Part shown: positions 33,242 to 61,535 of the stretch, piece by piece
Position numbering within the stretch: position 1 is the first letter of the stretch
How the letters are laid out: each line of letters starts with the position of its first letter
Assembly (NCBI GenBank): GCA_947629255.1
Contig: CANRDF010000004.1
Coordinates: forward strand, 1 to 63,302
Origin: an uncultured Bacilli bacterium
Lineage (GTDB): Bacteria; Bacillota_I; Bacilli_A; RF39; UBA660
Direction of reading: 5' to 3'
DNA length: 63,302 nt
Notes under the pieces: generated by a model
What the model was told of the DNA's origin: nothing
Databases searched by the model: none
Seen by the model: the letters and a program-made list of their open reading frames with translations, nothing else
Made by a program: the position numbers and the translations under genes

Positions 33242-33877
33242 ATGCATTATTATTATGATTTGTTAGTGAATTTAGATACAGAGTTATGGGAATTTTATGA
33301 ATGGGAGAATGAAGACCATTTAGTTCCTATTAAAAAAATTCCTCTCATTCGTGTTTTAGAAAGTGACATTAGAAACTTTATGAAATATGAAGTCACGATA
33401 GACCCTGAATGGGTGAATGGCTTAGCCGAGAAAACAATTTTTAAAAATGCTTCGGATAAAACAAATTGTCTTTTATTTTCGAGTACCAAAAATAGTATTG
33501 TTTTAGAATTTGATTCTTATGGAAATGTTGTTTCAAGAAGTAAACTTTTGATTGAAGATGAAAATAATTGTAATGAAGTTTCCTGTAACTTAAAAGAAAC
33601 AGAAGTGCCTTATAAAGTCCATGAAAAATTAGAACTTCGTTCTTTACTTAGACAACAAATGAAAGAAAAACATCTGTTGGAGATTGAACTGAAAACCTTA
33701 AAAGAAAGCAACAATGTTGCAAAGTGCTCTTATCTTTATTATGAATGGTTTGGCGTTTTAGAAAGTGATTTAGATAAAATGATTAAGGATTTCGAAAAAG
33801 ATTTAGCAAATGGAAATATGAAGAAACTTCATAAAATTGTAAAGATTATTCGTTTGTCTTATAAAGGACAACTATGA
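33242..33877 (+). CDS. DUF3603 (YjbA-like) family protein
   Basis: YDLLVN...FYEWENED...KIPLIRV; RSKLLIEDE. Confidence 0.7.
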   Translation: MHYYYDLLVNLDTELWEFYEWENEDHLVPIKKIPLIRVLESDIRNFMKYEVTIDPEWVNGLAEKTIFKNASDKTNCLLFSSTKNSIVLEFDSYGNVVSRSKLLIEDENNCNEVSCNLKETEVPYKVHEKLELRSLLRQQMKEKHLLEIELKTLKESNNVAKCSYLYYEWFGVLESDLDKMIKDFEKDLANGNMKKLHKIVKIIRLSYKGQL

Positions 33878-34407
33878 GAAAATTCTTTGTTCTTTTAATT
33901 CTTTGCTTTTTCTTAACGGGATGTGTAAATATTTCAGCACCTGATGCTGTAAAAGAATATTTAGAAAAAATACGAAATCATGACCAAAATATAGTTGCAT
34001 CTTTAGAGGATAAGGAAGAAAAAGAAAAACTTACGGAAGCTCAAGCAAAACTATATGATTTGATTATGAAAAGACAGTATGTTAATTTAGAATATAAGAT
34101 TGTTCATGAAACATATAATGGAAATCATGCCACGATAGAAGTAGAAATGGAAGTTTATGATTATATTCATAGTCAAAAAGAAGCTTTAGAATATGTTCAA
34201 AAACATCAAAGTGAATTTTTAGAAAAAGATGGAACGATAGACCAAAACAAATATAAAAATTTACAACTCGAATATATGGACAAAGAGAAAAATCGTATTT
34301 TATATACCATTTCATTTGATTGTGTATTGAATGAAGATTCTTGGGAAATTATAGAGCCTAAGACAGTTGATATGGAAAAGATTCAAGGAATATATGATTA
34401 TGAATAG
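33874..34407 (+). CDS. Hypothetical lipoprotein
   Basis: Lipobox FLTGC. Confidence 0.75.
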   Translation: MRKFFVLLILCFFLTGCVNISAPDAVKEYLEKIRNHDQNIVASLEDKEEKEKLTEAQAKLYDLIMKRQYVNLEYKIVHETYNGNHATIEVEMEVYDYIHSQKEALEYVQKHQSEFLEKDGTIDQNKYKNLQLEYMDKEKNRILYTISFDCVLNEDSWEIIEPKTVDMEKIQGIYDYE

Positions 34408-34500
34408 AGTAAGGAGGTATAAAAGGAGAGAAGTGGTAAAAAATCAAAATATAATTTTTTCCTACTTGAATTTTTATTTTATTTTTGATATACTGTATAC

Positions 34501-34609
34501 AGATGGAGGAAACTTCATAAAATAAAAAGGAAGCATTTCAGTTTAGCTATGCTGAATGTCTACCTATAAAGAGTATAGACATTTACATTTTTGTAAGTGT
34601 CATTTTTTT
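34501..34609 (+). ncRNA. Putative antisense antitoxin RNA A
   Basis: Promoter TTGAAT(34466)-N17-TATACT(34489); 5' hairpin ATGGAG-GAAA-CTTCAT; terminator GACATTTACA-tttt-TGTAAGTGTC-A-T7; overlaps the peptide stop and 3' UTR. Confidence 0.7.
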
Positions 34610-34695
34610 ATTAGGAAAATAATTAATATGATTTCCCATAATATGGTGATTACATACTGCAAGACTTTTAAACGATATATATGTCTTTTCGTCAT
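34600..34695 (-). CDS. Putative type I toxin peptide A (31 aa)
   Basis: MTKRHIYRLKVLQYVITILWEIILIIFLIKK; AAAGGGGTG RBS; promoter TTGCTA-N17-TAATAT (34810-34782); homolog at 46499. Confidence 0.75.
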   Translation of the reverse strand: MTKRHIYRLKVLQYVITILWEIILIIFLIKK

Positions 34696-34841
34696 ATTCA
34701 TCACACCCCTTTCTTCTTTAAATTTTGTTATAGAGAGAAGAAAGTGGTAGACACTCAGCAACTAAAATGCTTCCTATGAACATATTAGCACACTTTTATA
34801 ATATTAGCAAGCAAAAAAATGATAATTATCTACTGAAAATA

Positions 34842-34874
34842 AAATTGGTTGTTACGCTGGGTGACAACCAATTT
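34842..34874 (-). terminator. Strong hairpin upstream of module A
   Basis: AAATTGGTTGTTAC-gctgg-GTGACAACCAATTT; T-rich tail on the minus strand. Confidence 0.5.
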
Positions 34875-34945
34875 AACACTTGAAGAATAAAACTTCTTTT
34901 TTTGTCTTTTTTTTGTTATAATTTTTTTAATGAGGACGTGGAATT

Positions 34946-37300
34946 ATGGAAAAATATGAAGAAAATGGTTTGAGTCAAAGTGAAGTGGAAGAAAGAATTC
35001 AAAAAGGACTTGTAAACTTTGATGACCAACCTAAAACAAAATCAATTAAACAAATTATTGCAAGTAACTTTTTTACTTATTTTAACTTTTTAAATTTAGC
35101 TTTAGGACTTGCTGTTTTTCTTTCAGGATTATTTAGTCATCAACTTTTTCAAGGTTTAAAAAATTGTTTGTTTATGGGTGTTATTATTATCAATTCGATT
35201 ATTAGTATTATTGAAGAAATTATTTCTAAGAAAATTATTGATAAACTTTCCATGGTTTCTGAATCGGATATTATTGTTCTTCGTGATGGTAAGAAAGTAT
35301 CTAAAAAATTAGAAGAACTCGTTTTAGATGATGTGATTGAACTTCAAAGAGGACATCAAGTTGTTTGTGATTCTATTGTTTTAGATGGAGAAGTAGAAGT
35401 CAATGAATCGTTAATTACTGGAGAACCTAATTCTATAGTAAAGAAAAAAGGTGACTCGTTGCTTTCCGGTTCTTTTCTAGTGAGTGGAACATGCCTAGCT
35501 AAAATTGTTCATATTGGAAATGAAAACTATGTATCAAAAATATCTAGAGAAGCTAAATACAATAAAAAAGTAAATTCGATTATTATGGATTCTTTTGAAA
35601 AACTTTTAAAAGTGTTATCTATCTGTATTATTCCAATTGGAATTATTATGTTCTTTAGTCAATTTCATGCAAGTGAAGGAGTCGTCACTGATGCAATTTT
35701 TACGACGGTTGCAGCTTTAATTGGAATGATTCCTGAAGGGCTTGTTTTACTTACGAGTTCTGTGATGGCAGTGAGTGTTATCCGTTTGTCAAAATACAAA
35801 GTTTTAGTACAACAACTTTATTGTATTGAAACGTTAGCAAGAGTAGATGTCATTTGTTTAGATAAAACAGGAACACTTACAAAGGGATCAATGAAAGTTG
35901 TGGATACCATTCCTTATAAAAAAGCAACGAAAGAACATTTAAGTGAGATTGTTTCCTTATTTTGTCAAAATGTGAGAGATGCGAATGCTACGATGGAAGC
36001 TTTGCAACAAGAATTTCAACAGGAAGTCACAGATACTGTTGTCGAAGAAATTCCTTTTTCTTCCGAACGAAAGTTTAGTGGAATTGAGTTTAAAAGTCAT
36101 GGAACTATTTATATTGGTGCACCGGAATTTTTGATATCCGATAAAAAATTAATTCCTAGTGATATTGTAAAAAAACAAGAGAATTACCGGGTTTTACTTG
36201 TAGGGACTAGTCAAAAGAAAATTAGTAAAACGCCAAGTGATATTGAAATTTTAGGATACATTCTGATAGAGGATGTCATTCGTGAAGAAGCAAAAAATAC
36301 TTTAGAATACTTTAAATCTCAGGGAGTTGCTGTGAAGATTATTTCAGGAGACCAAGTAAAAACAGTTTTGAATATTGCGGAACGTGTAGGTCTTAAAAAC
36401 ATGAAAGGAATTGATGTGGGAGATTTAAGCGAGGAAGAATTAAAGGGAGCTATCTTAGAGTATCAAGTTTTTGGCCGAGTAAAACCAGAACAAAAAAAGA
36501 TTATTATTGAAACATTACAAAAGAGCGGAAGAACCGTTGCAATGACAGGAGATGGAGTGAATGACGTTCTTGCTTTAAAACAATCTGACTGTGCAATCTC
36601 AGTTGCTAGTGGAAGTGATGCCGCGAGAAATGTGGCTCAACTTGTATTATTAGATGATAACTTTGATTCTTTACCAAAAATTGTTGCCGAGGGAAGAAGA
36701 ACCATTAACAATATTGAAAGAAGTGCATCTTTACTTTTAGTAAAAACGATTTATACCGTTTTACTCATTCTTTTAAGTGTTGTACTATCTGCAAAATATT
36801 TCTTTATTCCTATACAACTTACTTTAATTACCACATTTACGATTGGAACTCCATCTTTCATTTTAGCCTTAGAACCGAACCATGATTTAGTGAAAGGAAA
36901 CTTTCTTTTAAAAGTTGTCAGTCGAAGCCTTCCTGTTGCTTTAACGATTGTCTTTAATGTTCTACTCGTCACATTATTTACTTATACGTTCCATTTATCT
37001 TATGAAATGCAAAGTTCGATTGCTGTGTTCTTAACCGCGATTACAGGATTTATTTATCTTTATAAAATTTGTACACCATTTACTTTACTTCGAATCGTGT
37101 TATTTATGGGATTACTTTTAGGCTTCATCTACTGTGTGTTATTCCAATATGATTTCTTTAATTTAATTCCAATCACACCAGCAAGTGCATTAATTGGCTT
37201 TGTTCTATCCATAGATTCTCTTTATATTTATAAAAAAGCAAACCATTATATGAGTAAGATATTCTCAAAATTAGATCCGACAATTCCTATTGAGTATTAG
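34946..37300 (+). CDS. Cation-transporting P-type ATPase (CtpE-like)
   Basis: ESLITGE, IPEGL, DKTGT, FSSERK, MTGDGVND. Confidence 0.95.
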   Translation: MEKYEENGLSQSEVEERIQKGLVNFDDQPKTKSIKQIIASNFFTYFNFLNLALGLAVFLSGLFSHQLFQGLKNCLFMGVIIINSIISIIEEIISKKIIDKLSMVSESDIIVLRDGKKVSKKLEELVLDDVIELQRGHQVVCDSIVLDGEVEVNESLITGEPNSIVKKKGDSLLSGSFLVSGTCLAKIVHIGNENYVSKISREAKYNKKVNSIIMDSFEKLLKVLSICIIPIGIIMFFSQFHASEGVVTDAIFTTVAALIGMIPEGLVLLTSSVMAVSVIRLSKYKVLVQQLYCIETLARVDVICLDKTGTLTKGSMKVVDTIPYKKATKEHLSEIVSLFCQNVRDANATMEALQQEFQQEVTDTVVEEIPFSSERKFSGIEFKSHGTIYIGAPEFLISDKKLIPSDIVKKQENYRVLLVGTSQKKISKTPSDIEILGYILIEDVIREEAKNTLEYFKSQGVAVKIISGDQVKTVLNIAERVGLKNMKGIDVGDLSEEELKGAILEYQVFGRVKPEQKKIIIETLQKSGRTVAMTGDGVNDVLALKQSDCAISVASGSDAARNVAQLVLLDDNFDSLPKIVAEGRRTINNIERSASLLLVKTIYTVLLILLSVVLSAKYFFIPIQLTLITTFTIGTPSFILALEPNHDLVKGNFLLKVVSRSLPVALTIVFNVLLVTLFTYTFHLSYEMQSSIAVFLTAITGFIYLYKICTPFTLLRIVLFMGLLLGFIYCVLFQYDFFNLIPITPASALIGFVLSIDSLYIYKKANHYMSKIFSKLDPTIPIEY

Positions 37301-37312
37301 AGGAGAAAGAGT

Positions 37313-38626
37313 ATGAAATATTTAAATGAATCAAAAATCAATAGTTCTTATTATGTAAATGGAAGAATAGAATATGCAACCAAAAATTTACTAAAATACA
37401 TCAAGAATTTACCAGAAGACCAACAAGAAGATTACAAGCAAAAAGTATCCAATATTATAGATAAAGAAATAATGAGTGTACAAGATGTCATAGATTTTTT
37501 TGAAAATTATGATGTACTCATTCATGAAATGCAAAAAATATTGGAGCAAAAATGGCTTAAACTAGATTTTAAAAAGTATGTAGGATATTTAAAAGAAAGT
37601 ATCGAGTTTTTAGTGAGTCACTATGATACTAAAGAAGATGAAGAAAACTTCAAATACCTCTTAGAATATGTGAATCATAGTAGTAATATGGAAAGACTTA
37701 AAGAGATTTTAGATTTTTATAATTCTATCGTGCATAAATATAACAAATTAGAAATAACATCTATTGAAGATTATTTAAATAAGAAGAAACCTCCTCGTTT
37801 TTTAGTATATAGCACGGGAGGAGCTAAAATATTAAAAGATAATCAAAATTATCGTAAACAAGAAATATCTGTGAGTTATGTTATGGAAGAACAATTTGGA
37901 ACATATGCTTCTCAATATGGAAGTATTGGTTTTATATATCCTTATGAAGATGTGATCTCGGCATATCCTGAAGATATTTATTCATGGATTGATAATGATG
38001 GTGAAGAAAAAGACCCTTTAAAAGTGGATGATGAATTTATTTTAAGAAGTTTGCAATCTTATCATTTTGTGTTTCCTTTAAAATTAATCATTGAAAAAAA
38101 TAAAGAATTATCTAAAAAAATGACGGGACATATTTTGGATGACAGTATTTATAATGAACTATTAATTAAAGATACGGTACAACCGATTGGAATCTATATT
38201 ATGGACTATGGATTAAAAGATGCTTGTCATGGATATAAAAAAGCAAAAGAAATGGCTGAGAGTTGGAATCTACCACTAGTCGAAATTGATAAAAGTATAT
38301 ACCGAGTACAAGCAGGGTTAGATGCCTTTTCTTTAACTGATAAATATAATATTATTTTATCGATGATTGACCAGGTGTGTGAAGAAAATGCTGTCTGGGC
38401 TTATTATCGGGACTGGTGTCGTATTGGTTTTGATCATTTTGTTGACGAAGGAAAATCAGATTACTTTTTGGATGAAGTGTGGAAAATCTATTTAAAATTA
38501 AAAGAAACCAATCAAATCAGTGTAGCAAATATCAAAACAGAATTAAATCGTCTTATGGGATTTTTAAGCGAACAAGACGTGGTGAATCTTTTAAAGGATG
38601 CAAGGCAAGAAAGTATGAAAAAATGA
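37313..38626 (+). CDS. Hypothetical soluble protein
   Basis: 437-aa ORF, GAGGAG RBS, no confidently recognised family. Confidence 0.75.
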   Translation: MKYLNESKINSSYYVNGRIEYATKNLLKYIKNLPEDQQEDYKQKVSNIIDKEIMSVQDVIDFFENYDVLIHEMQKILEQKWLKLDFKKYVGYLKESIEFLVSHYDTKEDEENFKYLLEYVNHSSNMERLKEILDFYNSIVHKYNKLEITSIEDYLNKKKPPRFLVYSTGGAKILKDNQNYRKQEISVSYVMEEQFGTYASQYGSIGFIYPYEDVISAYPEDIYSWIDNDGEEKDPLKVDDEFILRSLQSYHFVFPLKLIIEKNKELSKKMTGHILDDSIYNELLIKDTVQPIGIYIMDYGLKDACHGYKKAKEMAESWNLPLVEIDKSIYRVQAGLDAFSLTDKYNIILSMIDQVCEENAVWAYYRDWCRIGFDHFVDEGKSDYFLDEVWKIYLKLKETNQISVANIKTELNRLMGFLSEQDVVNLLKDARQESMKK

Positions 38627-38714
38627 AAACAGTGAAATAAAACTGTTTTTTTTTAGACGTTTATCCTAATCACAAATAGAGTATTTAAGTAAAATACCTA
38701 TGGGAGGGAAAAAT

Positions 38715-39161
38715 ATGTTATTTGATAACACAGATTTTAATTATGAAATTGGCTTTTTTAAAATTCCAGGAAGCGACTTTTCGAAAGAAATGAGAACCGA
38801 TAAGTTTTTAACACCGGAAGAAGGGTTTTTAAGAGGAAATTTATTTCGTGACGAATATGTGCCTTACAAAAATTTAACGTATTACAAATTAAAAGGGGAA
38901 AATGAAAGAGAAACTATGCTTTTAAAATTAATGTCTTATGCTTTTGCAATTGTTGATTTGAATCTCTATTTAGATTTACATCCAGAAGACCAAAATGCTT
39001 TCATGTTGTTTAAAAAATATACGAAAGAAAAATGTGATGTAGAAGAGGCTTACACAGAAAAATATGGTCCACTTATCGTTACAGATACAACAGGAAATAC
39101 CTTTAACTGGATTAAAAATCCATGGCCATGGGATAAGACAGGAGGGACTAAATATGTTTAA
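38715..39161 (+). CDS. cotJB: Spore coat protein CotJB with N-terminal CotJA-like segment
   Basis: FAIVDLNLYLDLHP, KYGPL, WIKNPWPWD; upstream PEEGFLRGNLF..Y.PY. Confidence 0.88.
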   Translation: MLFDNTDFNYEIGFFKIPGSDFSKEMRTDKFLTPEEGFLRGNLFRDEYVPYKNLTYYKLKGENERETMLLKLMSYAFAIVDLNLYLDLHPEDQNAFMLFKKYTKEKCDVEEAYTEKYGPLIVTDTTGNTFNWIKNPWPWDKTGGTKYV

Positions 39162-39711
39162 GTATGTCAAACATTTAAATTATCCAATTAATATTCAGAA
39201 AAAAGATTTGAAAATGGCAAAAAATTTATTAACTCAATTTGGGGGTTCGAATGGAGAACTTGCTGCATCTCTTCGTTATTTTAGTCAAAAGTTTTCAATG
39301 CCAGATGAAAAAGGAAAAGCTTTGTTAAATGATATTGCAACAGAAGAACTTGGACATTGTGAAATGATTTGTACGATGGTGAGTCAATTAGTGAAAGATG
39401 CAACCGTAGAAGAATTAAAAGCAAATGGTCTAGAAAGTCTATATACAGAGCATGGAAAAGGGGTATATCCAACCGATTCTTTTGGAAATCCATTTACTGT
39501 GACTTACTTTGCTGTAACTGGAGATACATTAGCTGATTTATCGGAAGATATGGCTGCTGAGCAAAAAGCAAGAGCTATTTATGAAAACTTAATTGATGAA
39601 ACGGATGATGAAGATGTCCTTGCACCACTTCTATTCTTAAGACAAAGAGAAGTTGTTCATTTTAATCGTTTTAAAGAATTATATAAATATTATAAAAATA
39701 AGGGATATTAA
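39154..39711 (+). CDS. cotJC: Spore coat protein CotJC (Mn-catalase family)
   Basis: QFGGSNGELAASLRY, DIATEELGHCEM, EDMAAEQKAR, FLRQREVVHF. Confidence 0.93.
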   Translation: MFKYVKHLNYPINIQKKDLKMAKNLLTQFGGSNGELAASLRYFSQKFSMPDEKGKALLNDIATEELGHCEMICTMVSQLVKDATVEELKANGLESLYTEHGKGVYPTDSFGNPFTVTYFAVTGDTLADLSEDMAAEQKARAIYENLIDETDDEDVLAPLLFLRQREVVHFNRFKELYKYYKNKGY

Positions 39712-39792
39712 AGGCACGAAAAAAGTGTCTTTTTTTCTTGTATTCCTCTTCTTTTTGTGGTATCTTTTTATTAAGGAAAGATAGGGATTTAT

Positions 39793-40551
39793 ATGGATGA
39801 AAAAAAGAAAAAAACAACTTCAAAGAAAACGAGTACAAAGACAAGTACAGCTAAGAAAAACGGTGTAAAAAAGACGACTACTAGAAAGACAACGACCAAA
39901 AAGCCAGCATCTAAGAAACCCGTTGCCAAAGTAGAGAAGAAAGTTGTAGAAGAAAAAATTATTGAAGAGAAAGAAAGTTTTCAAGAACCAATTGAAATGA
40001 ATGAAGAACCTAAAAAAGAGGCAAAAGTTGTTTGGAATGAAAAGAGTCATTTAAAAGCAATTATTATGGCTGTTGTAGCCTTTCTTGTTTTAGCAGTAGG
40101 TGTTATCGTGGCTTTTATACAAGCAGAGGAAAGTGGTGCTTCTTACAGTGATAAATGGAAAGATAAAAGTTATTTAGTTGAAAAAGAATATGCAGCATCT
40201 GTGACTTGTGATGGAATTCCAAATGCTATTTTAGGAGACCAAGCGTTTATTCTTGTGACTTCATTTAATGAAGAAGAATTTCATTTAGAAAAAGATTTAG
40301 CAAGACTGATTCGTGAAAATCATATTGAAGATTTTTATGTTTATCCTTTAGTTGATAATTGTGGGCCAATCAGCAATGCATCAAGTGTTGCAGGAAGGAA
40401 TCTATTATTAACAAAAGGTTTAGAACACACTCCAGCAATTTTATATTACCGAAATGGAAAGCTAGAAGAAGTTGTAGAACGTGAAGATGAAAAAATGTTA
40501 GAAGTAGGAGATTTCCAAAAGTTACTTGATATTTATGAAATTACAAAATAA
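39793..40551 (+). CDS. Membrane protein with Lys/Thr-rich N-terminus and thioredoxin-like C-terminal domain
   Basis: KKTTTRKTTTKK tract, one TM, TPAILYYRNGK. Confidence 0.65.
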   Translation: MDEKKKKTTSKKTSTKTSTAKKNGVKKTTTRKTTTKKPASKKPVAKVEKKVVEEKIIEEKESFQEPIEMNEEPKKEAKVVWNEKSHLKAIIMAVVAFLVLAVGVIVAFIQAEESGASYSDKWKDKSYLVEKEYAASVTCDGIPNAILGDQAFILVTSFNEEEFHLEKDLARLIRENHIEDFYVYPLVDNCGPISNASSVAGRNLLLTKGLEHTPAILYYRNGKLEEVVEREDEKMLEVGDFQKLLDIYEITK

Positions 40552-40586
40552 AAAGAGAAATCTTTTTTTCTTTTAGGAGGGTGCAT

Positions 40587-41117
40587 ATGTTAAACGTTGT
40601 TTTATTTGAACCAGAAATTCCTGGAAATACTGGAAATATCATGCGTACTTGTGTTGCTACACATACTCGTCTTCATTTGATTGAGCCTCTTGGTTTTTCT
40701 TTGGAAGAAAAGTATATTAAAAGAAGTGGGGTAAATTACATCGAGCATTGTGATTATACAGTATATTCAAATTGGGAAGAATTTGAGAAGAAAAATCAGG
40801 GAACTTATTATTTTTATACAAGATATGGTCATAAACCACATTCGGAGTTTGATTATTCAAATACGGATGAAAATATTTATCTTATTTTTGGAAAAGAAAG
40901 TACAGGTATCCCAAGAAGCATTTTGAAGCCTCATTTAGAATCTTGTGCAAGAATTCCAATGACGGATAAAGTTCGAGCTTTAAATTTATCAAATTCTGTT
41001 GCCATTGTTTTATATGAAGCATTAAGACAACAAAATTATATTGATTTATTAAAAGACGAGCCAGGAGACGCTGGTCATAAAGGAAATCATTTTATCGAGG
41101 ATTACTATGAACTGTAA
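40587..41117 (+). CDS. trmL: tRNA (cytidine(34)-2'-O)-methyltransferase
   Basis: PEIPGNTGNIMRTC, LHLIEPLGF, FGKESTG, RALNLSNS, YEALRQ. Confidence 0.95.
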   Translation: MLNVVLFEPEIPGNTGNIMRTCVATHTRLHLIEPLGFSLEEKYIKRSGVNYIEHCDYTVYSNWEEFEKKNQGTYYFYTRYGHKPHSEFDYSNTDENIYLIFGKESTGIPRSILKPHLESCARIPMTDKVRALNLSNSVAIVLYEALRQQNYIDLLKDEPGDAGHKGNHFIEDYYEL

Positions 41118-41385
41118 AAGATGCGGAAAAGCGATTGGAACAGACCGAGGAATTTGTCCATTCTGTGGAGCAATGTTAAGTCAAGACCAAATGGCTACTT
41201 ATAAACAAATGAAAAAAGAAAATCGTTTTCAAGAAGAAATGATTACTGAAAAATATAATGGCAAAAAGGTTTATTATGAAAAAAGAGAAGGATCGGATTC
41301 CAATTTCTATATATGGATTATTCTCTTTGGACTTCTTATCATCATTGCCGTTGTTGTTCTTGTGGTTGTCTTAGGAATTTTCTAA
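41107..41385 (+). CDS. Zinc-ribbon membrane protein
   Basis: CKRCG...CPFCG; C-terminal TM. Confidence 0.8.
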   Translation: MNCKRCGKAIGTDRGICPFCGAMLSQDQMATYKQMKKENRFQEEMITEKYNGKKVYYEKREGSDSNFYIWIILFGLLIIIAVVVLVVVLGIF

Positions 41386-41449
41386 GACTTTTTTCTTGCC
41401 TTTTCGCATATAAAAAATAAAATGATCCAAACTATAAAAGAGGGATTTT

Positions 41450-41968
41450 ATGAAACTACTATTTGTTTGTATCAAGATTTTCTTTGCCCGTATTTTAGAT
41501 GTGACTATCGCGACGTTTAGACAAAATATTTTATTAAAGGGTAAATGTGTTTTAGGTTCTTTGTTAGCTTTTGCAGAAATTATGATTTGGTTTTTAGTAG
41601 CTAGAGAAGCTCTTACGATTCCTATTCAAAGTTTATGGATTCCCATTTCTTATTCGCTAGGTTTTGCAACGGGGACTCTCATTGGAAGTTTATTATCGAA
41701 ACATTTTATTCGGGGAGAAGTAGGGGTTCAAATTATTATTGATGAAGAAGAAAAAAAAGATTTAGTGAATTCCTTAAAAATACGAGGATACCCCATTAAT
41801 ATTCTTCATTTAGAAAGTGGTTTTAACAGTGTTCCAAAGCTTATGATTTTCATTGAAGTGAGTACGAAAAATTTAAAAAAATTGGAAACTTTAATTCAGC
41901 AAAATGATCCAGATGCTTTTATTGTGATTAGTGATACGAAAAAAGTACTTAAAGGAACGATGAAATAA
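41450..41968 (+). CDS. UPF0316 / DUF2179-family membrane protein
   Basis: IFFARILDVTIATFR, AFAEIMIW, YSLGFATGTLIG, DPDAFI. Confidence 0.85.
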   Translation: MKLLFVCIKIFFARILDVTIATFRQNILLKGKCVLGSLLAFAEIMIWFLVAREALTIPIQSLWIPISYSLGFATGTLIGSLLSKHFIRGEVGVQIIIDEEEKKDLVNSLKIRGYPINILHLESGFNSVPKLMIFIEVSTKNLKKLETLIQQNDPDAFIVISDTKKVLKGTMK

Positions 41969-41976
41969 AAGGAAAC

Positions 41977-42005
41977 TCATAGAATGGTTTCTTTTTTCAT
42001 ATATT
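41977..42005 (+). promoter_or_regulatory. Possible sigmaE-type promoter of dacB-spmAB
   Basis: tcATA-N16-CATATATT; this operon is sigmaE-controlled in B. subtilis. Confidence 0.45.
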
Positions 42006-42021
42006 TCACTAGGTGGTTTTC

Positions 42022-43089
42022 ATGAAAAAATGTTGTCTTATCCTTTTACTTCTTTTGATTCCTATTCGTGTTTCAGCCATTTCGGCGGAAAGTTATGCAG
42101 TGATGGATTATGATTCAGGACGTATTTTAATGAGTCATAATGGGGAGAAAGAAAAATTAATTGCCAGTACAACCAAAATTATGACTGCAATCATTGCTTT
42201 AGAAAATAAAGAACTAGATAGTGTAAGAAAAGTTGGGGAAGAAGTTTTAAAAGCTTATGGAAGTGCCATTTATCTTAGTTTAGAGGAAGAAATTACGTTA
42301 AAAGATTTACTTTATGGACTGATGCTTCGAAGTGGAAATGATGCAGCGATTGAAATTGCTTTTCATGTTTCAGGAAGTTTAGAAGAATTTGTAAAACTGA
42401 TGAATGAGAAAGCTTACGAACTAGGAATGAGTCATACGAAGTTTTTAAATCCGCATGGACTGGAAGAACAAGATGGAAGTGGGAATACTTCAACTGCTAT
42501 CGATATGGCCAAACTTATGCGTTACGCCTTAACAAATGAAACTTTTCGAGAAATTATCAAAACCAAAAGTTATACTGCTAAGACAACAGGAAAAACTTAT
42601 GTTTGGCAAAACAAAAATAAACTTTTACGAACTTATGAATATAACATTGGTGGAAAAACAGGCTTTACCGAAAAAGCTCGAAGAACTTTAGTCACGGCTT
42701 CCAAGAAAGATGATAAAACTTGCATTGTCGTGACTTTAAATGATGGAAATGATTTTGCAGATCATAAAGAGTTATGCGAAAGTGTTTTTGAAACCTATGA
42801 AAGAGTTTTATTGCTTGATAAAGACAGTACGATTATTGATGCGAATCATCCAGAAAAGTATTATTTAGAAGAAAGTTTTTATGCTTTGCTCACGAGTGAT
42901 GAGAAAGAAAGTATTCGTATTGATTATAAAATAGATACAAATGAAAAAAATACTGAAGTTGGGGTAGCCGAAGTGTATTTAAAAGATTCTTTGCTTGGAA
43001 GTGTGAAAATTTATCAAAGAGAAGAGGCTAAAGAAGAGAAAAAAGAAAACTTCTTTCAAAGATTTCTAAGGTGGTTGTTTCGATGGTAA
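42022..43089 (+). CDS. dacB: D-alanyl-D-alanine carboxypeptidase (spore cortex PBP5*)
   Basis: IASTTKIMT, LRSGNDAA, NPHGL, GGKTGFT; precedes spmAB. Confidence 0.9.
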   Translation: MKKCCLILLLLLIPIRVSAISAESYAVMDYDSGRILMSHNGEKEKLIASTTKIMTAIIALENKELDSVRKVGEEVLKAYGSAIYLSLEEEITLKDLLYGLMLRSGNDAAIEIAFHVSGSLEEFVKLMNEKAYELGMSHTKFLNPHGLEEQDGSGNTSTAIDMAKLMRYALTNETFREIIKTKSYTAKTTGKTYVWQNKNKLLRTYEYNIGGKTGFTEKARRTLVTASKKDDKTCIVVTLNDGNDFADHKELCESVFETYERVLLLDKDSTIIDANHPEKYYLEESFYALLTSDEKESIRIDYKIDTNEKNTEVGVAEVYLKDSLLGSVKIYQREEAKEEKKENFFQRFLRWLFRW

Positions 43090-43673
43090 CATATATTTGG
43101 GTTTTTTTCCTTGTCGTAGGTTCTTTATTTACGATTTTTACAGGGAATATTGAAAGTTTAAATAATCAAATTTTAAAAGGGGGAACGGATGGAATCAAAC
43201 TTCTTTTGGATATGCTTCCTTTACTTGTTTTATGGACAGGTGTTATGAAAATTGCCGAAGACTCGAAAATTTTAGAAAAGTTTTCCAAATTAGTGTGTCC
43301 TCTTTTAAGTAAGTTATTTCCAAGTTTGCCCAAAAATCATCCTGCTTTAGGTTATATTGCTTCGAATATTGCCGCGAATGCTTTAGGTCTTGGTAGTGCG
43401 GCGACTCCGTTTGGCTTAAAAGCGATGGAATGCTTGCAAGAAGATAATCCTCAAAAGGATACGGCAACAGAAGCTATGGTTACGTTTTTAATATTAAATA
43501 CGGGTGGAGTGACCATTGTTCCAACGACCGTGATTGCCCTTCGAATGATGTATGGAAGTGCAAATCCATCGGAAATTATTTTAACTAGTATTCTGGCGAC
43601 TTTCTCATCGAATATAGCCGGGCTTATTTTTGATTATATAAAGAGGAGGAAAAACCGTGTTTCAACTCTCTAA
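43083..43673 (+). CDS. spmA: Spore maturation protein A
   Basis: NIAANALGLGSAATPFGLKAM, PTTVIALR. Confidence 0.94.
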   Translation: MVTYIWVFFLVVGSLFTIFTGNIESLNNQILKGGTDGIKLLLDMLPLLVLWTGVMKIAEDSKILEKFSKLVCPLLSKLFPSLPKNHPALGYIASNIAANALGLGSAATPFGLKAMECLQEDNPQKDTATEAMVTFLILNTGGVTIVPTTVIALRMMYGSANPSEIILTSILATFSSNIAGLIFDYIKRRKNRVSTL

Positions 43674-44178
43674 TTACATTGTTCCTATTTTTGTTTTAGG
43701 AATTGTACTCTATGCTTTTAAGAAAAAAGTAAACATCTATGAATCATTTCTTGCTGGGGCTAAAGAAGGACTGATTACTACTTTTAAGATTGCTCCTGCT
43801 GTGATTGCCATGGTGTTTGTTACGAATATCTTTTTAAATAGTAAATTTTTGGAATTTCTTTTTTCTTTTTTGACACCTACATTAAATCGTTTTGGAATTC
43901 CTCTTAGTATTTTACCAATGGCTTTTGTAAGACCGATTTCAGGAACAGCCTCTTTAGCCATTATGACCAATATTTTTCAAATGTATGGACCTGATTCTTT
44001 TGTGGGAAGACTGGCCTCCAATTTACAAGGATGTACTGATACAACCATCTATGTCTTGGCTTTATATTTTGGGTCCATTCGAGTTACTAAAACCAAACAT
44101 GCATTACAGGCTGGTTTATTTGCTGATTTTATGGGAATTTTAGCTGCTTTTCTTATCACGTTCCTCTTTTTTGGATAA
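43657..44178 (+). CDS. spmB: Spore maturation protein B
   Basis: YESFLAGAKEG, RPISG, TDTTIYVLALYFGS. Confidence 0.94.
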   Translation: MFQLSNYIVPIFVLGIVLYAFKKKVNIYESFLAGAKEGLITTFKIAPAVIAMVFVTNIFLNSKFLEFLFSFLTPTLNRFGIPLSILPMAFVRPISGTASLAIMTNIFQMYGPDSFVGRLASNLQGCTDTTIYVLALYFGSIRVTKTKHALQAGLFADFMGILAAFLITFLFFG

Positions 44179-44341
44179 AAACATAAAAAAAATGATACTA
44201 TTACAAGCCCTTATTGTAAGGTGCTTTTTTGTTTCTTTCAAAAACAAATGTACGCGTTTTTGAAAGAAAATATTTGACAAAGACACATAGACTATGGTAT
44301 GATAGTGATGCTTTCCGGAAAAAAAGAAGGATGGATTATAA

Positions 44342-45013
44342 ATGAAAAAATTACCCTCGGTAAAGTTAATCGTATTAGCTTTGACCGTTATTGGATGTTT
44401 AGAATTTTTAGTAAATCGTTTAGAAGATGTCATCTTAGTGACTTTTGAAAGTGGAATTACAACTTCAGGAAATTTCTTATATGAAACGATTTTGATGAAA
44501 AATCAAAAAAATGAATTAAACAGCCAAGAAAATATTGAAAATATAGAACAACAAATTGAAATTATTAGTTTGAAAGCTACCACACCAGAACCTATTGTAT
44601 ATGATGGTATGACGATGGCAGAGCTTACAGACAAACTAAATTTAAGTTTACATAGTGATTTAGCTGGATATGGAAGTAGTTTTGCAAAATATTCTTTGGA
44701 ATATGGAGTAGATCCTTATTTAGCTGTATCAATTACTTTACTAGAAACAGGTTGTAAATGGAATTGTAGTGCTTTAGTACGTAAATGTAACAATGTTGGT
44801 GGAATGAAAGGACCTGGAAGATGTAATGGTGGGTCTTATGATACGTTTGAAAGCTTAGATGCTGGAATCGAAGCAATGATCAGAAACCTTTCTAAAAATT
44901 ATATTCAAAAAGGAATTGTAACACCAGAACAAATTAATAAAAAGTATGCGGAAAGTACAACTTGGGCTACAAAAGTAAATAAATACATCCAAGAAGTGAA
45001 AAATGCTGTCTAA
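44342..45013 (+). CDS. Glucosaminidase (GH73/lysozyme-like) domain protein
   Basis: YGVDPYLAVSITLLETG, NNVGGM, FESLDAGI, INKKYA...WATKV. Confidence 0.8.
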   Translation: MKKLPSVKLIVLALTVIGCLEFLVNRLEDVILVTFESGITTSGNFLYETILMKNQKNELNSQENIENIEQQIEIISLKATTPEPIVYDGMTMAELTDKLNLSLHSDLAGYGSSFAKYSLEYGVDPYLAVSITLLETGCKWNCSALVRKCNNVGGMKGPGRCNGGSYDTFESLDAGIEAMIRNLSKNYIQKGIVTPEQINKKYAESTTWATKVNKYIQEVKNAV

Positions 45014-45079
45014 AACAAGGGAAATCTTGTTTTTTTCATGTCTTTTCGTTATAATAGTAATAGAAAGAAGTGAATAAAA

Positions 45080-45796
45080 GTGAAGAAAGAAAACTGGGTG
45101 TTAATAGGTTTACTAGGTGTGATTGTAGTGATTGCTTGTGTGTGTGCCTTCTTTGCTTTTCAAAATAGAGAAACGGAAGAAAAGGATGCAATAAAAATAA
45201 AGGAAGAATATGGTTCTTTGAATGGTCAAGTAAATGAAAATAATAAAAAAGAATATCCTGTTGTAGAACTTGATGATGACAATCCTTTTGTATATAAAAC
45301 AGAAGAAGAAATTGTAAAGATTTTAGAAAGTGGGTCTGGCATTATTTATTTTGGTTTTCCAACTTGTCCTTGGTGTCGAACTATACTGCCAATTTTAGAG
45401 GAGGCAGCTAAAGAAGAAAGTATTGGTGAGATTTATTACTTAAATATCAAAGACATTCGTTCTACTCTTGCTTTAGATGAAAATGATAAAGTGATTACTC
45501 AAAAAGAGGGTAGTGCCAATTATTATAAAATATTAGATTTATTAAAAGATTATTTAAGTGATTATACTTTATATGATTCCAAAGGAAAAAGTATTGAGAC
45601 CAATGAAAAAAGACTTTATGCTCCCACCATTGTAGCAGTTCAAGGTGGGAAGATTAAAGCATTTCATGAGGGAACTGTAGATGCACAAGAAACAGGGTAT
45701 GAAACATTGTCCGATAGTGACCGAGAAAAACTTAAAAATACTTTAAAAGAATTATTAAATTCAATCAGTTTAGATGTTTGTACGGATGCATGTTAA
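45080..45796 (+). CDS. Membrane-anchored thioredoxin-fold protein (CPWC)
   Basis: N-terminal TM, IIYFGFPTCPWCR, YAPTIV. Confidence 0.82.
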   Translation: MKKENWVLIGLLGVIVVIACVCAFFAFQNRETEEKDAIKIKEEYGSLNGQVNENNKKEYPVVELDDDNPFVYKTEEEIVKILESGSGIIYFGFPTCPWCRTILPILEEAAKEESIGEIYYLNIKDIRSTLALDENDKVITQKEGSANYYKILDLLKDYLSDYTLYDSKGKSIETNEKRLYAPTIVAVQGGKIKAFHEGTVDAQETGYETLSDSDREKLKNTLKELLNSISLDVCTDAC

Positions 45797-45831
45797 GAAA
45801 AGTAAGTATAGCTTTTCTTTTTCTTTATGAC

Positions 45832-45942
45832 AAAAAATGACACTTACAAGCAATTGTAAATGTCGTAAATCCATATAGGTAGGCATTCAGTAATGGAAAA
45901 CTGAATACTTCCTTTTTTAATTTTATGAAGTTTCCTTCATCT
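45832..45942 (-). ncRNA. Putative antisense RNA B (orphan, no cognate peptide gene)
   Basis: Promoter TTGAAA(45977)-N17-TATACT(45954); ATGAAG-GAAA-CTTCAT hairpin; GACATTTACAA/TTGTAAGTGTC terminator plus T-run. Confidence 0.62.
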
Positions 45943-46105
45943 GTATACAGTATATCAAAAATGAGATAAAATTTCAAGTAGGAAAATATCATTTTTTGCT
46001 TGCTAATATTATAAATGTATGCTAATATGTTTGTAGGAAGTTTTTTAGAAAAACTGGGTGCCTTTTCACCTATCGGCTATGATAAGCTCGAGGAGGTGAT
46101 GAGCC

Positions 46106-46222
46106 ATGGATAAGCGAAGAACTTTTGTAATAAAGATTTTCAAATATCTATTAGCACTTGCTACATTATTTACAATATGCTTTTTAGCATTTTTGTACGT
46201 AATGATGCAAAAAGGCACTTAA
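46106..46222 (+). CDS. Putative type I toxin peptide C (38 aa)
   Basis: MDKRRTFVIKIFKYLLALATLFTICFLAFLYVMMQKGT; AGGAGGTGA RBS; promoter TTGCTA(46000)-N17-TAATAT(46023). Confidence 0.75.
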   Translation: MDKRRTFVIKIFKYLLALATLFTICFLAFLYVMMQKGT

Positions 46223-46325
46223 TAAAATTCAAATAGAATCTTATTAAATGCCTGACTATAGGTGAGGCATTCAGCGGCTATTCTGAAATACCTTCCTTTT
46301 TTATTTTATGAAGTTTCCTCCATCT
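46209..46325 (-). ncRNA. Putative antisense antitoxin RNA C
   Basis: Promoter TTGAAT(46360)-N17-TATACT(46337); GAAA hairpin; terminator AGGCATTTAATAA.../TTATTAAGTGCCT-TTTT. Confidence 0.68.
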
Positions 46326-46498
46326 GTATACAGTATATCAAAAATAAAATAAAAATTCAAGTGGCAAAAAATAATATTTTTGCTTGCTAATATTATAAAA
46401 GTGTGTTAATATGTTTGCAGGAAGCATTTTAGTTGCTGAGTGTCTACCACTTTCTTCTCTCTATAACAAAATTTAAAGAAGAAAGGGGTGTGATGTAT

Positions 46499-46594
46499 AT
46501 GAGTCAAAACAGGAAATTTATACTTCAAATATTTGATTACATTATCACAATATTATGGCAAGTAATATTTATTCTTTCCATAATAAAGAAATGA
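46499..46594 (+). CDS. Putative type I toxin peptide D (31 aa)
   Basis: MSQNRKFILQIFDYIITILWQVIFILSIIKK; AAAGGGGTG RBS; promoter TTGCTA(46384)-N17-TAATAT(46407). Confidence 0.75.
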   Translation: MSQNRKFILQIFDYIITILWQVIFILSIIKK

Positions 46595-46696
46595 CACTTA
46601 CAAGTAAATTGTAAATGTCTCCAATCTTTTTCGGTAGGCATTCAGTGTGCAAAACTGAAATGCTTCCTTTTTTATTATATGAAGTTTCCTTCATCT
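46585..46696 (-). ncRNA. Putative antisense antitoxin RNA D
   Basis: Promoter TTGAAT(46731)-N17-TATACT(46708); GAAA hairpin; GACATTTACAA/TTGTAAGTGTC terminator. Confidence 0.68.
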
Positions 46697-46821
46697 ATAT
46701 ACAGTATACCAAAAATAAATATAAAATTCAAGTAGGAAAAAGTGATTTTAAAACTTTTTGTTTCTTCTTGAGAAATCAAATGATTTCTTTTATAATAGAG
46801 TTTAAGAAAGAGGTGAGAGTT

Positions 46822-48102
46822 ATGAACATCTCGTTACTACCAGCAGATAAATATATTGTACTTAATAAAACACTTCTTACAGAATTAGATTGTAAATATT
46901 TAGTAAGTCTTTATGAACCTATTATTGGCTCCAATGCAGTCAGTTTATATATGACTTTATGGAGAGACTTAGAGCGTTATAATTCTGTAAGTACCGATTA
47001 CTCTCATCATCACCTTATGACTCTGTTAAAAATGAATTTAGAATCCATTAAAATGGCTCGTAAAACATTGGAAGCTGTTGGATTATTAAAAACTTATTAT
47101 GAAGCAGGGGAACCAAGTAACTATGTCTATGAATTATATTCACCTATGACTCCAAAAGAGTTTTTTGCAAATCCTATTTTTAATGTTGTTTTATACAATA
47201 ACATCGGGGCGAAAGAATATGACTTATTAAAACAAGAATTTTCCGTTTTACCGTTTTCTTTCAAAGACTATATAGAAATTACGACACCTTTTGATGAGCT
47301 CTTTAAATCATCCAGTGATTCTGTTTCCTTTGAGGCGATTGGAAGAGAAGTTTTACCGATTACTATGCAAGACCAAGTAGATTTTGATTTACTGATTTCT
47401 AGTTTGCCAAGAGGAATGGTAACTGAAAAAACACTTACCAAAAAAATGAAAGAACTTATCAATAACTTAGCGTTGGTTTATGATTTAGATACTTTAAAAA
47501 TGTGTGAAATTATAAGATTATGTATGAATGAAAAAGGTGCGATTGACAAAGAAGAACTACGAATTCAAACAAGAAAATATTATCAATATAATCATCATGG
47601 AAAATTACCAACTCTTATTTATCGGTCTCAACCTGATTATTTAAAAGACCCAGTCGGGGATACATCAAAAAAAGGAAAGATTATTGAAGTTTTTGAAAAT
47701 ACAACACCTTATGATTTTCTTCGAAGTAAATATCATACAGGAAGTCCCACAAATAGGGATTTAAGACTTATTGAATATTTATTGGTCGATGTTGGATTAC
47801 AGCCGGCTGTATGTAATGTGCTCATTGATTATGTTCTTAAAAAAAATAATAATAAATTAAATAGTTCTTTTGTAGAAACGATTGCTGGTCAGTGGAAACG
47901 AATCGGGGTTCAAACAGCAAAAGATGCGATGGCATTAGCCGAGAAAGAACATAAAAGAATGATGAATAAATTAAATAAAGTAAGTAATAAACCTGTCTCT
48001 AATGATGTACCAGTATGGTTTAATGAAAAGATTGAAAAAGAGGGTATGACAGAGGAAGAATCAAATGAACTTGAAAGTATGTTAAGTAAATATAAAGATT
48101 AG
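46822..48102 (+). CDS. dnaB: Replication initiation / helicase loader DnaB (Bacilli type)
   Basis: LYEPIIG..AVSLY, LEAVGLLKTY, YELYSP, NVLIDYVL, IAGQW; AGGTGA RBS before ATG 46822; precedes dnaI. Confidence 0.9.
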   Translation: MNISLLPADKYIVLNKTLLTELDCKYLVSLYEPIIGSNAVSLYMTLWRDLERYNSVSTDYSHHHLMTLLKMNLESIKMARKTLEAVGLLKTYYEAGEPSNYVYELYSPMTPKEFFANPIFNVVLYNNIGAKEYDLLKQEFSVLPFSFKDYIEITTPFDELFKSSSDSVSFEAIGREVLPITMQDQVDFDLLISSLPRGMVTEKTLTKKMKELINNLALVYDLDTLKMCEIIRLCMNEKGAIDKEELRIQTRKYYQYNHHGKLPTLIYRSQPDYLKDPVGDTSKKGKIIEVFENTTPYDFLRSKYHTGSPTNRDLRLIEYLLVDVGLQPAVCNVLIDYVLKKNNNKLNSSFVETIAGQWKRIGVQTAKDAMALAEKEHKRMMNKLNKVSNKPVSNDVPVWFNEKIEKEGMTEEESNELESMLSKYKD

Positions 48103-48111
48103 GAGGGCCTT

Positions 48112-48972: not shown

Positions 48973-48974
48973 TT

Positions 48975-49256
48975 TTAAGAACATTTCTTTTTTAACTTTT
49001 CGATTTCACATTCCATTCTTTTTAAGACTTCAATTAAAGAATCCATTTGCATTTGACTATTTTGGTTTTGATTCGTTTCCATTCTTCCTTGGATTAAAGC
49101 AAGTTGTCCAGCATAAGCAAGAAGGTAATCTCCGACGAGGACAAGCCAGTTTCCCACACTGTTGGCTTCGTTAGGAGTGAGTTCTGGAGATATCACCGCG
49201 CCTATAATGGCTGCTGAAATTGAATAGAGTTGAGGGTCTATATTGGGAGGAAACAT
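48975..49256 (-). CDS. Hypothetical protein
   Basis: AAGGAGG RBS; LTPNEANSVGNWLVLVG; C-terminal coiled coil. Confidence 0.7.
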   Translation of the reverse strand: MFPPNIDPQLYSISAAIIGAVISPELTPNEANSVGNWLVLVGDYLLAYAGQLALIQGRMETNQNQNSQMQMDSLIEVLKRMECEIEKLKKKCS

Positions 49257-49350
49257 GGATACCTCCTTTTTTAACATTATATGCAAAATGATTAAAAATA
49301 AAATGATTCCCGAAACTTTTTTCTTACATATACTACCTTAGAAAGGTACG

Positions 49351-59562: not shown

Positions 59563-59794
59563 GAAAGTTACATTTGCCACTTCAAAAATATTAGTATCTT
59601 TAATGACTCTATCTATATTATAGAAAGTGTGAAATCAATTGTTTACATTTATTAGACATTTTTAAAGAAAAGTAAAACCAAAAATAAAAGGTTTTATTTT
59701 TATGAAAGAAAAAAATGAAGGTATTCTATTGACCGAGTTTTAAAAAATAAGTATAATTATTAACATAAGGATATATAGAATATGAGGGATAAAT

Positions 59795-61447: not shown

Positions 61448-61535
61448 GTTTAAAATATTTTGTTTTTTATATTGACCGATTTGGAAAAAGCAAGTATAAT
61501 TTTATCATAGGGAAGTATAGATATGAGGGATCATT

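Follow-up and report, generated by a model that had tools for sequence, protein, structure and literature searches.

The window analysed here is a stretch of 63,302 nucleotides (nt), positions 1 to 63,302 of the forward strand of contig CANRDF010000004.1, from an uncultured Bacilli bacterium (GTDB lineage RF39; UBA660) whose assembly, GCA_947629255.1, is a 1.59-Mb metagenome bin of 103 contigs that is 93.6% complete and has 30% G+C (genome G000, in which contig C4 carries the window). Between a lipoprotein-like gene (33874-34407) and a P-type ATPase gene (34946-37300) that matches the Pfam family E1-E2_ATPase lies a two-gene unit at 34460-34815. This unit, hereafter the 34-kb copy, is one copy of a repeated module of ~375 bp in which a small peptide gene on the minus strand and an antisense RNA gene on the plus strand are predicted to converge. 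Here we describe its anatomy, its relatives and the type I toxin-antitoxin family to which it probably belongs.

On the plus strand, a promoter consensus scan found a promoter-like site at 34466-34494 (-35 TTGAAT at 34466-34471, a 17-nt spacer and a TG-extended -10 TATACT at 34489-34494) with 9 of 12 consensus matches and the TG present. A perfect 10-bp palindrome, CTGTATACAG (34493-34502), spans the predicted start of the antisense, or antitoxin, RNA, which would extend over ~108 nt (34501-34609, plus strand) and fold into three hairpins: H1 (AUGGAG-GAAA-CUUCAU, 34503-34518), H2 (approximately 34528-34565) and H3 (34578-34601), the last identified by a terminator scan and followed by a U run. 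On the minus strand, the predicted toxin is a 31-amino-acid peptide, MTKRHIYRLKVLQYVITILWEIILIIFLIKK, whose open reading frame (ORF) with its stop codon occupies 34600-34695 (ATG at 34695-34693, stop at 34602-34600); a second in-frame ATG lies two codons upstream (34701-34699), and a Shine-Dalgarno (SD) sequence, AAAGGGGUG (34712-34704), lies 10 nt upstream of the ORF. The 5' untranslated region (UTR) is predicted to form a hairpin at 34705-34748 that would bury the SD sequence against an upstream CACUUUCUUCU arm (arms 34705-34717 and 34736-34748, 92% complementary). The promoter-like site of the peptide mRNA at 34782-34810 (-35 TTGCTA at 34810-34805, a 17-nt spacer and a TG-extended -10 TAATAT at 34787-34782) was read by eye and is not listed by the scan, which offers TTATCA-16-TATTAT at 34825-34798 as an alternative; the TTGCTA/TAATAT site is conserved across all aligned copies.

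Two further segments of the minus strand would pair with each other over a long distance within the mRNA. The 5' arm (34746-34775) starts at the predicted transcript start, and the 3' arm (34528-34564), which is followed on the mRNA strand by a U5AU4 tract (34529-34519), is the opposite strand of the DNA that encodes H2 of the antisense RNA. The two predicted transcripts overlap by ~85-90 nt at their 3' ends, with the RNA terminator (34578-34609) lying over the last codons of the ORF. This terminator is the sole intrinsic terminator found in the region.

The predicted structure of the antisense RNA is well supported by folding and by comparison. The 113-nt RNA folds at -31.2 kcal/mol (z = -5.0), and a covariance model built from module copies (R1) scores 125 bits at the 34-kb RNA. 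In an alignment of 81 hits from the source genome and its congeners, representing 77 distinct sequences, 94.8% of cells in the three hairpins are paired; sliding the partners by 1-3 columns leaves only 27-41% paired. Both sides have changed in 20 of 23 pairs. On the RNA strand G-U pairs are frequent, as at pair 119-165, where 27 sequences have U-G; because such pairs would be A-C mismatches on the mRNA strand, the strand that is folded and under selection is the antisense RNA. Across the genus, the RNA promoter and first hairpin are the best-conserved part of the module. Between species, the promoter and H1 (AUGAAG-GAAA-CUUCAU, then AUAAAAUAAAAA) are almost invariant while the remaining module diverges freely; one can only guess at the cause, for instance a site bound by a protein or a stem that protects the 5' end.

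The peptide gene follows a different pattern of conservation. An ATG ORF of at least 20 amino acids that ends no more than 45 nt from the RNA 3' end accompanies 59 of 80 RNA-model hits. A list filtered for an SD sequence holds 59 distinct ORFs, most of which we take as real and a few of which were judged spurious, and 36 of these were chosen for an alignment (A4). The aligned peptides are 25-38 amino acids long with a mean grand average of hydropathy of 1.46; a 17-residue window reaches a Kyte-Doolittle value of at least 2.0 in 35 of the 36, and the first eight residues carry a net positive charge in 32. A common pattern runs M-(T/S/K)-K-(R/K)-(E/D)-F, then a run of I/L/V/F and often a KK end, and the peptide of the 34-kb copy has a basic N-terminus, a single hydrophobic helix and a KK end. 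In a set of nine close paralogues, divergence is 20.1% in the ORF, compared with 9.2% in the 5' UTR and 10.1% in the 3' tail, and pN/pS (non-synonymous to synonymous change) is 0.49. From these comparisons the ORF appears to be conserved as a feature rather than as a sequence. The peptides are thus short (below ~60 amino acids) and, in 35 of the 36, hydrophobic and of membrane type, as in the generic definition of a type I toxin.

Folding predictions suggest that the peptide mRNA is held in a translationally closed form. At the 34-kb copy the SD hairpin comprises 9-16 bp (-14.5 kcal/mol, z = -3.0), and in 26 of 30 modules at least 8 of the 12 bases in the SD window are paired in the minimum free energy (MFE) fold, with a predicted cost of ~12 kcal/mol for opening the ribosome-binding site. 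The whole mRNA is predicted at ~255-257 nt, and the MFE of the 257-nt form is -79.6 kcal/mol (z = -9.7), with the first ~30 nt paired to the last ~35 nt; at least 15 such end-to-end pairs occur in the MFE fold of 27 of 30 modules. Across 37 modules, duplexes between cognate 5' UTRs and 3' regions average -38.8 kcal/mol, compared with -22.7 kcal/mol for non-cognate combinations, a few of which, mostly between close paralogues, equal the cognate ones. By this measure the two mRNA arms co-evolve across highly diverged modules. Since the DNA of the 3' arm also encodes H2, H2 of the antisense RNA resembles the 5' arm of the mRNA, and both are alternative partners of the same 3' segment. An mRNA fold that would hold off translation, through a sequestered SD sequence, 5'-3' pairing or both, is thus predicted for the modules, and both devices are recognised features of type I toxin mRNAs (PMC8594479).

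Taken together, the architecture suggests that the module is probably a member of an undescribed, multi-copy, chromosomal type I toxin-antitoxin family, of which the 34-kb copy is one locus. In silico, each complete module has a candidate antisense RNA that would pair with the putative toxin mRNA, and at the 34-kb copy a promoter and a terminator are predicted for it; the genes converge and overlap at their 3' ends, as judged from predicted transcript ends. According to PMC4147584, such 3' overlap is shared by all Gram-positive type I loci described to 2014. The module anatomy, RNA covariation, ORF conservation and arm co-evolution are in silico results, and the functional part of the assignment is an inference from sequence.

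Several observations weigh against this assignment. First, it is the architecture, and nothing else, that places the module among toxin-antitoxin systems. Searches of the region with Rfam at E (expect value) up to 10 returned chance-level matches to unrelated families and no toxin-antitoxin RNA family. Three peptides gave no match in Pfam or NCBIfam, and the 36 aligned peptides gave weak generic transmembrane matches in Pfam with no type I toxin family at E up to 1. A profile search of the Protein Data Bank (PDB) returned no chain at E up to 10, and the best score in the ESM Atlas, 0.82, is at noise level. Second, 21 of the 80 RNA hits lack an ATG ORF by the rule given above; these include hits at the ends of contigs, hits whose ORF starts with a codon other than ATG, and true orphans. 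Third, the covariation alignment was fitted to the model's own structure, which favours that structure; the gap to the slid-column control is large despite this. Fourth, the terminator scan gave no match on the mRNA strand, where the local 3' hairpin is weak (-7.4 kcal/mol, z = -0.4, compared with -11.2 kcal/mol, z = -2.2, for H2 on the RNA strand). The 3' end of the mRNA, and hence the exact overlap, is accordingly a prediction and uncertain; because the local hairpin is weak, the long end-to-end helix may itself provide the terminator stem. Finally, the predicted cost of opening the ribosome-binding site is high without or with bound RNA (11.9 and 13.7 kcal/mol on average); on RNA binding it rises in 22 of 30 modules and falls in six, the 34-kb copy among them.

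The family stands apart from named ones in the searches of Rfam, Pfam, NCBIfam, PDB and the Atlas. Over the whole window, Rfam at its gathering score reports two tRNAs only, and no sequence or profile relation to TxpA/RatA, BsrG/SR4, BsrE/SR5, YonT/SR6 or SprG/SprF was found. A word search of the open-access literature returned nothing on such loci in uncultured gut Bacilli, which does not prove their absence from it. For scale, T1TAdb listed 24 families and Rfam 13 antitoxin families, according to PMC8594479.

The 34-kb copy is repeated elsewhere in the window, in an array near 46 kb. Compared in inverted orientation, the unit and the array share segments of 143 nt at 92%, 83 nt at 96% and 100 nt at 82% identity. 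The array is headed by an antisense-RNA gene that has no peptide ORF (45828-45948, minus strand, 130.9 bits) and that abuts the stop of the gene at 45080-45796. This orphan is followed on the plus strand by module A (45985-46385), with a 38-amino-acid peptide at 46106-46219 and an antisense RNA at 46213-46331 on the minus strand, and by module B (46365-46775), with a 31-amino-acid peptide at 46499-46591 and an antisense RNA at 46582-46702, likewise on the minus strand. Module B is the closest paralogue of the 34-kb copy in the window, with 84% identity over 382 nt by BLAST (E = 3e-111). The initial annotation, which had placed a complete module on the opposite strand at 34460-34815 with both promoters intact, was right in its coordinates to within a few bases, and promoter-like sites were found on each strand, on the plus strand by scan and on the minus strand by eye. 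Its exact match of 77 nt is also borne out (34699-34775 = 46419-46495, the whole 5' UTR), and a second of 65 nt covers the RNA promoter and first hairpin (34464-34528 = 46298-46362). Its count of this locus as a fourth copy of the same module needs amending: the inverted copy is real, but the first unit of the array is the peptide-less RNA gene, so that the window holds three complete modules and one orphan.

A count over the whole source genome, by BLAST and R1, confirms the earlier expectation of further copies: 11 RNA genes lie in at least five loci on contigs C4 (four), C26 (five), C91 (one, at the contig start) and C102 (one, at the contig end). Eight of the 11 have a peptide ORF, two are orphans and one, at a contig end, is not judgeable. 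The C26 array consists of an orphan RNA gene (L136, G000:C26, 2659-2776), a module A' and three B-like modules, and lies between the end of an RNase-J-like gene and another gene. That contigs break inside modules suggests that 11 is an undercount. The copies are 13-26% diverged.

A trivial origin of the repeat, through low-complexity AT resemblance or misassembly with no true repeat at 34.5 kb, is extremely improbable. The 30% G+C of the genome, the 103 contigs of the bin and the breaks of C91 and C102 inside modules could invite such an explanation. It is refuted by the E of 3e-111 to module B and the exact runs of 77 and 65 nt, which also dispose of the low-complexity resemblance that the initial annotation had itself thought unlikely, and by exact contig pieces from public sequencing runs. 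These pieces, from rabbit-gut runs and from a run of a second study, cover 33500-34493 (runs X1 and X3), 34476-34728 and 34747-35900 (X1) and, in the second study, the left junction again at 34191-34493 (X5). No single piece spans the whole module; both junctions and its unique middle (34476-34728) are covered, the left junction in two studies. Among the public runs listed for this stretch there was no RNA run. The syntenic site in the closest relative, G055, also holds modules. As an observation beside this, the summed contig depth at 34472-34552, over the RNA promoter and first hairpin (X1 and X3), is ~114-116, compared with 7-8 on the flanks; this is not a copy number, and the excess fits many near-identical copies in the community.

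Both arrays of the source genome and their G055 counterparts start with an orphan RNA gene directly after the stop of a convergent protein gene. Such an orphan may serve as an extra antitoxin or as a terminator for the neighbouring gene.

The orphans bear on a second interpretation of the module, in which the RNA/peptide pair would be no toxin-antitoxin system but a harmless membrane modulator or signalling peptide with a multi-copy regulatory small RNA whose ultra-conserved 5' hairpin would let it act on further targets in trans as well. The existence of peptide-less RNA genes (45828-45948 and the one that heads the C26 array) would suit this interpretation, as would the far better conservation of H1 and the promoter than of the remaining module, with H1 outside the predicted overlap with the peptide mRNA; moreover, some candidate type I peptides are non-toxic in their own host, as stated by Fozo et al. 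(PMC2887945). We nevertheless consider it quite unlikely. The RNA is always convergent and overlapping with a peptide gene whose SD sequence is predicted to be buried, and the co-evolution of the mRNA arms with the H2 segment would tie each RNA to its cognate message. H1 itself shows no consistent complementarity to the start of the mRNA: in 30 modules, the first ~29 nt of the RNA against positions -85 to +30 gave -9.9 kcal/mol, compared with -8.9 kcal/mol for shuffles, and no common target, in a comparison confined to the cognate message.

A type I toxin-antitoxin family in the chromosome remains the preferred interpretation. In the genus, R1 finds matches in 37 of 47 genomes, and in 13 of the 15 that are of high quality; the counts reach 24 in G057, a ~1.4-Mb relative, and 19 in G015. 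Across the order, 74 of 151 sampled genomes matched, all in one family (73 of 149 when the source genome is excluded), and the matches cover 47 of 86 sampled genera. A first search of relatives had also given matches in two other families of the class, in a single genome of each and all at E > 1e-4. A pattern scan of species-representative genomes returned at least 123 stretches; R1 gave 58 matches among the 80 loci listed, and none for the pattern hits in unrelated phyla such as Saccharibacteria, Fictibacillus and Armatimonadota. The matched records are mostly metagenome-assembled genomes of uncultured Bacilli, Tenericutes or Erysipelotrichaceae, many of them rabbit-derived bins, and include Candidatus Ventrenecus. 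No module copy was found in the phage, plasmid and viral-contig collections searched.

Sites shared with relatives show how the loci change. G055 is ~91% identical to, and collinear with, window positions 34447-50000. At the ATPase site it carries two modules in the same orientation, compared with one in the source genome, and at the 46-kb site it carries orphan + B + B', compared with orphan + A + B. Module B is nearest to the second ATPase-side module of G055 (ORF divergence 4.3%), and the 34-kb copy and B have nearly identical 5' UTRs and ORFs that differ by ~25%, a mosaic that points to gene conversion. Mosaics and copy-number differences of this kind are the products that unequal crossing-over and gene conversion between arrays would be expected to leave. 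Of 21 genomes of the genus that were examined, six have an RNA gene upstream of the ATPase gene (G000, G055, G013, G045, G003 and G002); it runs one way in G000 and G055 and the opposite way in G013, G045 (two copies) and G003, and in G002 it is cut by the contig end. The 46-kb site, which lies upstream of a dnaB-like gene, holds a single module in G052, where the flanking genes have ~67-75% DNA identity. Just upstream of the same gene, at the site that modules occupy in G000, G055 and G052, weak R1 matches (17-18 bits, E 0.04-0.06, filters off) were observed in G020:C4 (L197, 1271-1387) and G043:C1 (L199, 1211-1328), two genomes otherwise without a significant RNA-model match; these may have arisen by chance or be decayed remnants.

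Synteny breaks at the left flank of the 34-kb copy (34420-34446 relative to G055:C1, G055:C12, G014:C7 and G052:C1). The G055 modules abut a block found on C18 in the source genome; the lipoprotein gene of G055 sits on a different contig, where no module follows it. Downstream of the lipoprotein gene, G014 and G052 have dacB-spmAB and other blocks, so that the ATPase gene comes ~9-13 kb later. Gene order thus differs among close relatives, and the breakpoints coincide with module arrays, which may be substrates for recombination. An inversion of the 11.6-kb segment between the inverted copies is conceivable in principle, and no evidence for it was found among public contigs aligned to 33500-35900. 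Joints in which these contigs go back by 367-369 nt, together with loose ends, were considered as variants of the locus and rejected, as they match paralogous arrays at 85% likeness.

In a third interpretation the module would be a non-autonomous mobile element that enters intergenic sites and then amplifies; it would either resemble a miniature inverted-repeat transposable element or be mobilised as a cassette by a recombinase whose gene lies elsewhere. The copies are multiple and dispersed, the arrays sit at synteny breakpoints among G000, G055, G014 and G052, and the RNA gene upstream of the ATPase gene occurs in both orientations. In G052, moreover, the single module (G052:C12, L196) has a direct repeat on its two sides that consists of the final ~36 nt of the upstream gene (1176-1211 and 1680-1717, 23 nt exact). 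The repeat includes the stop codon region and could be a scar left by an insertion or by a partial tandem duplication. This is the sole array of 36 with a flank repeat above background: in the other 35 arrays with both flanks, flank-to-flank direct repeats reach at most 13 nt exact, against a non-cognate maximum of 16. At the 34-kb copy no terminal inverted repeats or target duplication were found beyond short AT-rich matches. Among 17 neighbouring ORFs no transposase or site-specific recombinase family of Pfam was found, a search that did not extend to a trans-acting enzyme elsewhere in the genome. Matches there comprise RmuC, P-type ATPase, CotJB, manganese catalase, DUF6568, SpoU methylase, DUF2179/DUF5698, D-Ala-D-Ala carboxypeptidase, nucleoside-recognition (Gate) domains, glucosaminidase, DnaB_2 and an AAA ATPase with weak matches to IstB/AFG1/DnaA models; some neighbours have no Pfam match, and the neighbours are housekeeping and sporulation genes. 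The 13-26% divergence of the copies speaks against a recent burst, the phage, plasmid and viral-contig collections searched yielded no copy, and the conserved RNA structure and ORFs point to selection on function. On balance a mobile element is very unlikely.

The initial annotation had reported no transposase, terminal repeats or target duplication at this locus, which our analysis confirms and, for flank repeats, extends to 35 of 36 arrays. The picture that it implies, of a unit recently dispersed over 11 kb, finds no support. The ATPase site is occupied in G055 by two modules of the same orientation and by an RNA gene also in G013, G045, G003 and G002; the ORF differs from that of B by ~25% beside a near-identical 5' UTR; and the family reaches 47 of the 86 sampled genera. 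Comparison of orthologous sites, which it had proposed, succeeded in part: the ATPase site is occupied in relatives, but a clean empty site was not obtained, because all relatives examined have rearranged flanks. The data appear to fit old loci that grow, contract and swap segments by recombination better than a mobile element. We propose that the site upstream of the ATPase gene would be an old residence of the family, and that copy number and content would change through unequal crossing-over and gene conversion between arrays, not through transposition. The lack of repeats and target duplications and the housekeeping neighbours agree on this point with Fozo et al. (PMC2887945), where type I loci are described as often tandemly duplicated and as evolving by lineage-specific duplication rather than horizontal transfer.

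In the mechanism that we propose for a single locus, a sigma-70-like promoter on the minus strand would drive the peptide mRNA and a second promoter on the plus strand would drive the ~108-nt RNA. Left to itself, the mRNA would be closed by its 5'-3' pairing and would persist for long in a translationally silent state. The antisense RNA would pair with the 3' region of the mRNA and compete there with the mRNA 5' end, since the arm to which that end is paired is exactly complementary to the antisense RNA. Its binding would displace the 5' arm, form a long perfect duplex and expose both mRNA ends, and by analogy with txpA/RatA and bsrG/SR4 the duplex would be cut by RNase III, the message being lost before the membrane-active peptide could be made. 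A tightening of the SD stem by the RNA, as in bsrG/SR4, was also considered; it appears as a weak average trend only, is absent at the 34-kb copy and is not established.

A bolder form of this mechanism, which we put forward tentatively and regard as possible but doubtful, makes the RNA a strand-exchange antitoxin: H2 would mimic the 5' end of the mRNA, displace it and so uncap both ends for RNases, and the long helix with its U-tract would perhaps serve as a terminator. Such a system would combine a lock of the hok or aapA kind with a 3'-overlap layout, at up to about two dozen loci per 1.4-Mb genome and throughout a whole family of gut Bacilli.

Other repeats lie elsewhere in the window. Three pairs of long direct repeats (D1, D2 and D4) at 59780-62994, with ~1.75 kb spacing and 85-90% identity, point to a tandem gene duplication close to the end of the window. 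At 3236-3737, direct repeats of 135-143 nt (D5 and D6), with a spacing of 251-263 bp and 86-93% identity, are probably an internal gene repeat or another tandem element.

Sequence alone defines the modules as a family, for which a usable covariance model and dozens of peptide variants are now at hand. About half of the genera sampled in one family of uncultured gut Bacilli carry it; these bacteria have small genomes and come from gut metagenomes of rabbits and other animals. The modules offer a natural series for studying how a toxin peptide diversifies while the RNA structures that control it stay fixed, whether type I loci in repeated form are used as substrates of recombination where synteny breaks, and whether a 3'-overlapping antitoxin can act by competing with end-to-end pairing of the mRNA. 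For annotation, the family accounts for a conspicuous repeat that breaks assemblies of such genomes.

Among known systems, the nearest in layout are txpA/RatA and bsrG/SR4, and also bsrE/SR5 and yonT/SR6, of Bacillus subtilis, which likewise pair a hydrophobic peptide gene with a convergent cis-antisense RNA that overlaps it at the 3' end. The overlap is ~75 nt in txpA/RatA and ~120 nt in bsrG/SR4, as given in PMC4147584. As in those loci, the ribosome-binding site would lie within a stem and RNase III cleavage of the duplex would be expected. No sequence relation of the module peptide or RNA to them was found, and the B. subtilis loci lie in prophage or skin elements, whereas the modules lie between core genes with up to 24 matches per ~1.4-Mb genome. 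The module RNA would also target an arm that the mRNA 5' end pairs with, an arrangement that does not appear in the available parts of the B. subtilis descriptions. A convergent arrangement with a common terminator region and a hydrophobic peptide of ~30 amino acids is shared with par of Enterococcus pAD1 (Fst, RNA I/RNA II) and with SprA1/SprA1AS of Staphylococcus aureus. Neither Pfam nor Rfam places the module peptide or RNA in these families. In both systems, toxin mRNA and antitoxin interact outside the overlap, according to PMC8594479, whereas in 30 modules no complementarity of the antitoxin to the 5' or ribosome-binding region outside the overlap was found.

In its genomic habit the family resembles ldr/rdl and ibs/sib of Escherichia coli. 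E. coli K-12 carries three long direct repeats (LDRs) in tandem and a fourth elsewhere, which would mirror the array and separate copy of the window. The ldr/rdl and ibs/sib loci were likewise first noticed as repeated intergenic DNA. They have several tandem copies within a single intergenic region and evolve by lineage-specific duplication (PMC2887945), as we propose for the modules. They are Gram-negative and unrelated to the modules in sequence, and their antisense RNAs lie opposite the 5' part (Ldr) or the whole ORF (Ibs), rather than the 3' end as in the modules (PMC8594479). The modules remain Gram-positive in layout, with the 3' ends of the two genes facing each other.

In mRNA folding the modules come closest to hok/sok and aapA/IsoA, as the putative toxin mRNA is predicted to be locked by pairing of both its ends. 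The hok/sok and aapA/IsoA families are known for 5'-3' long-distance pairing of the mRNA, which hides the SD sequence or the antitoxin site and is removed by 3' trimming. Their antitoxins bind the 5' region, whereas the module antitoxin is complementary to the 3' arm, and unlike in those families the SD sequence of the module has a local anti-SD of its own.

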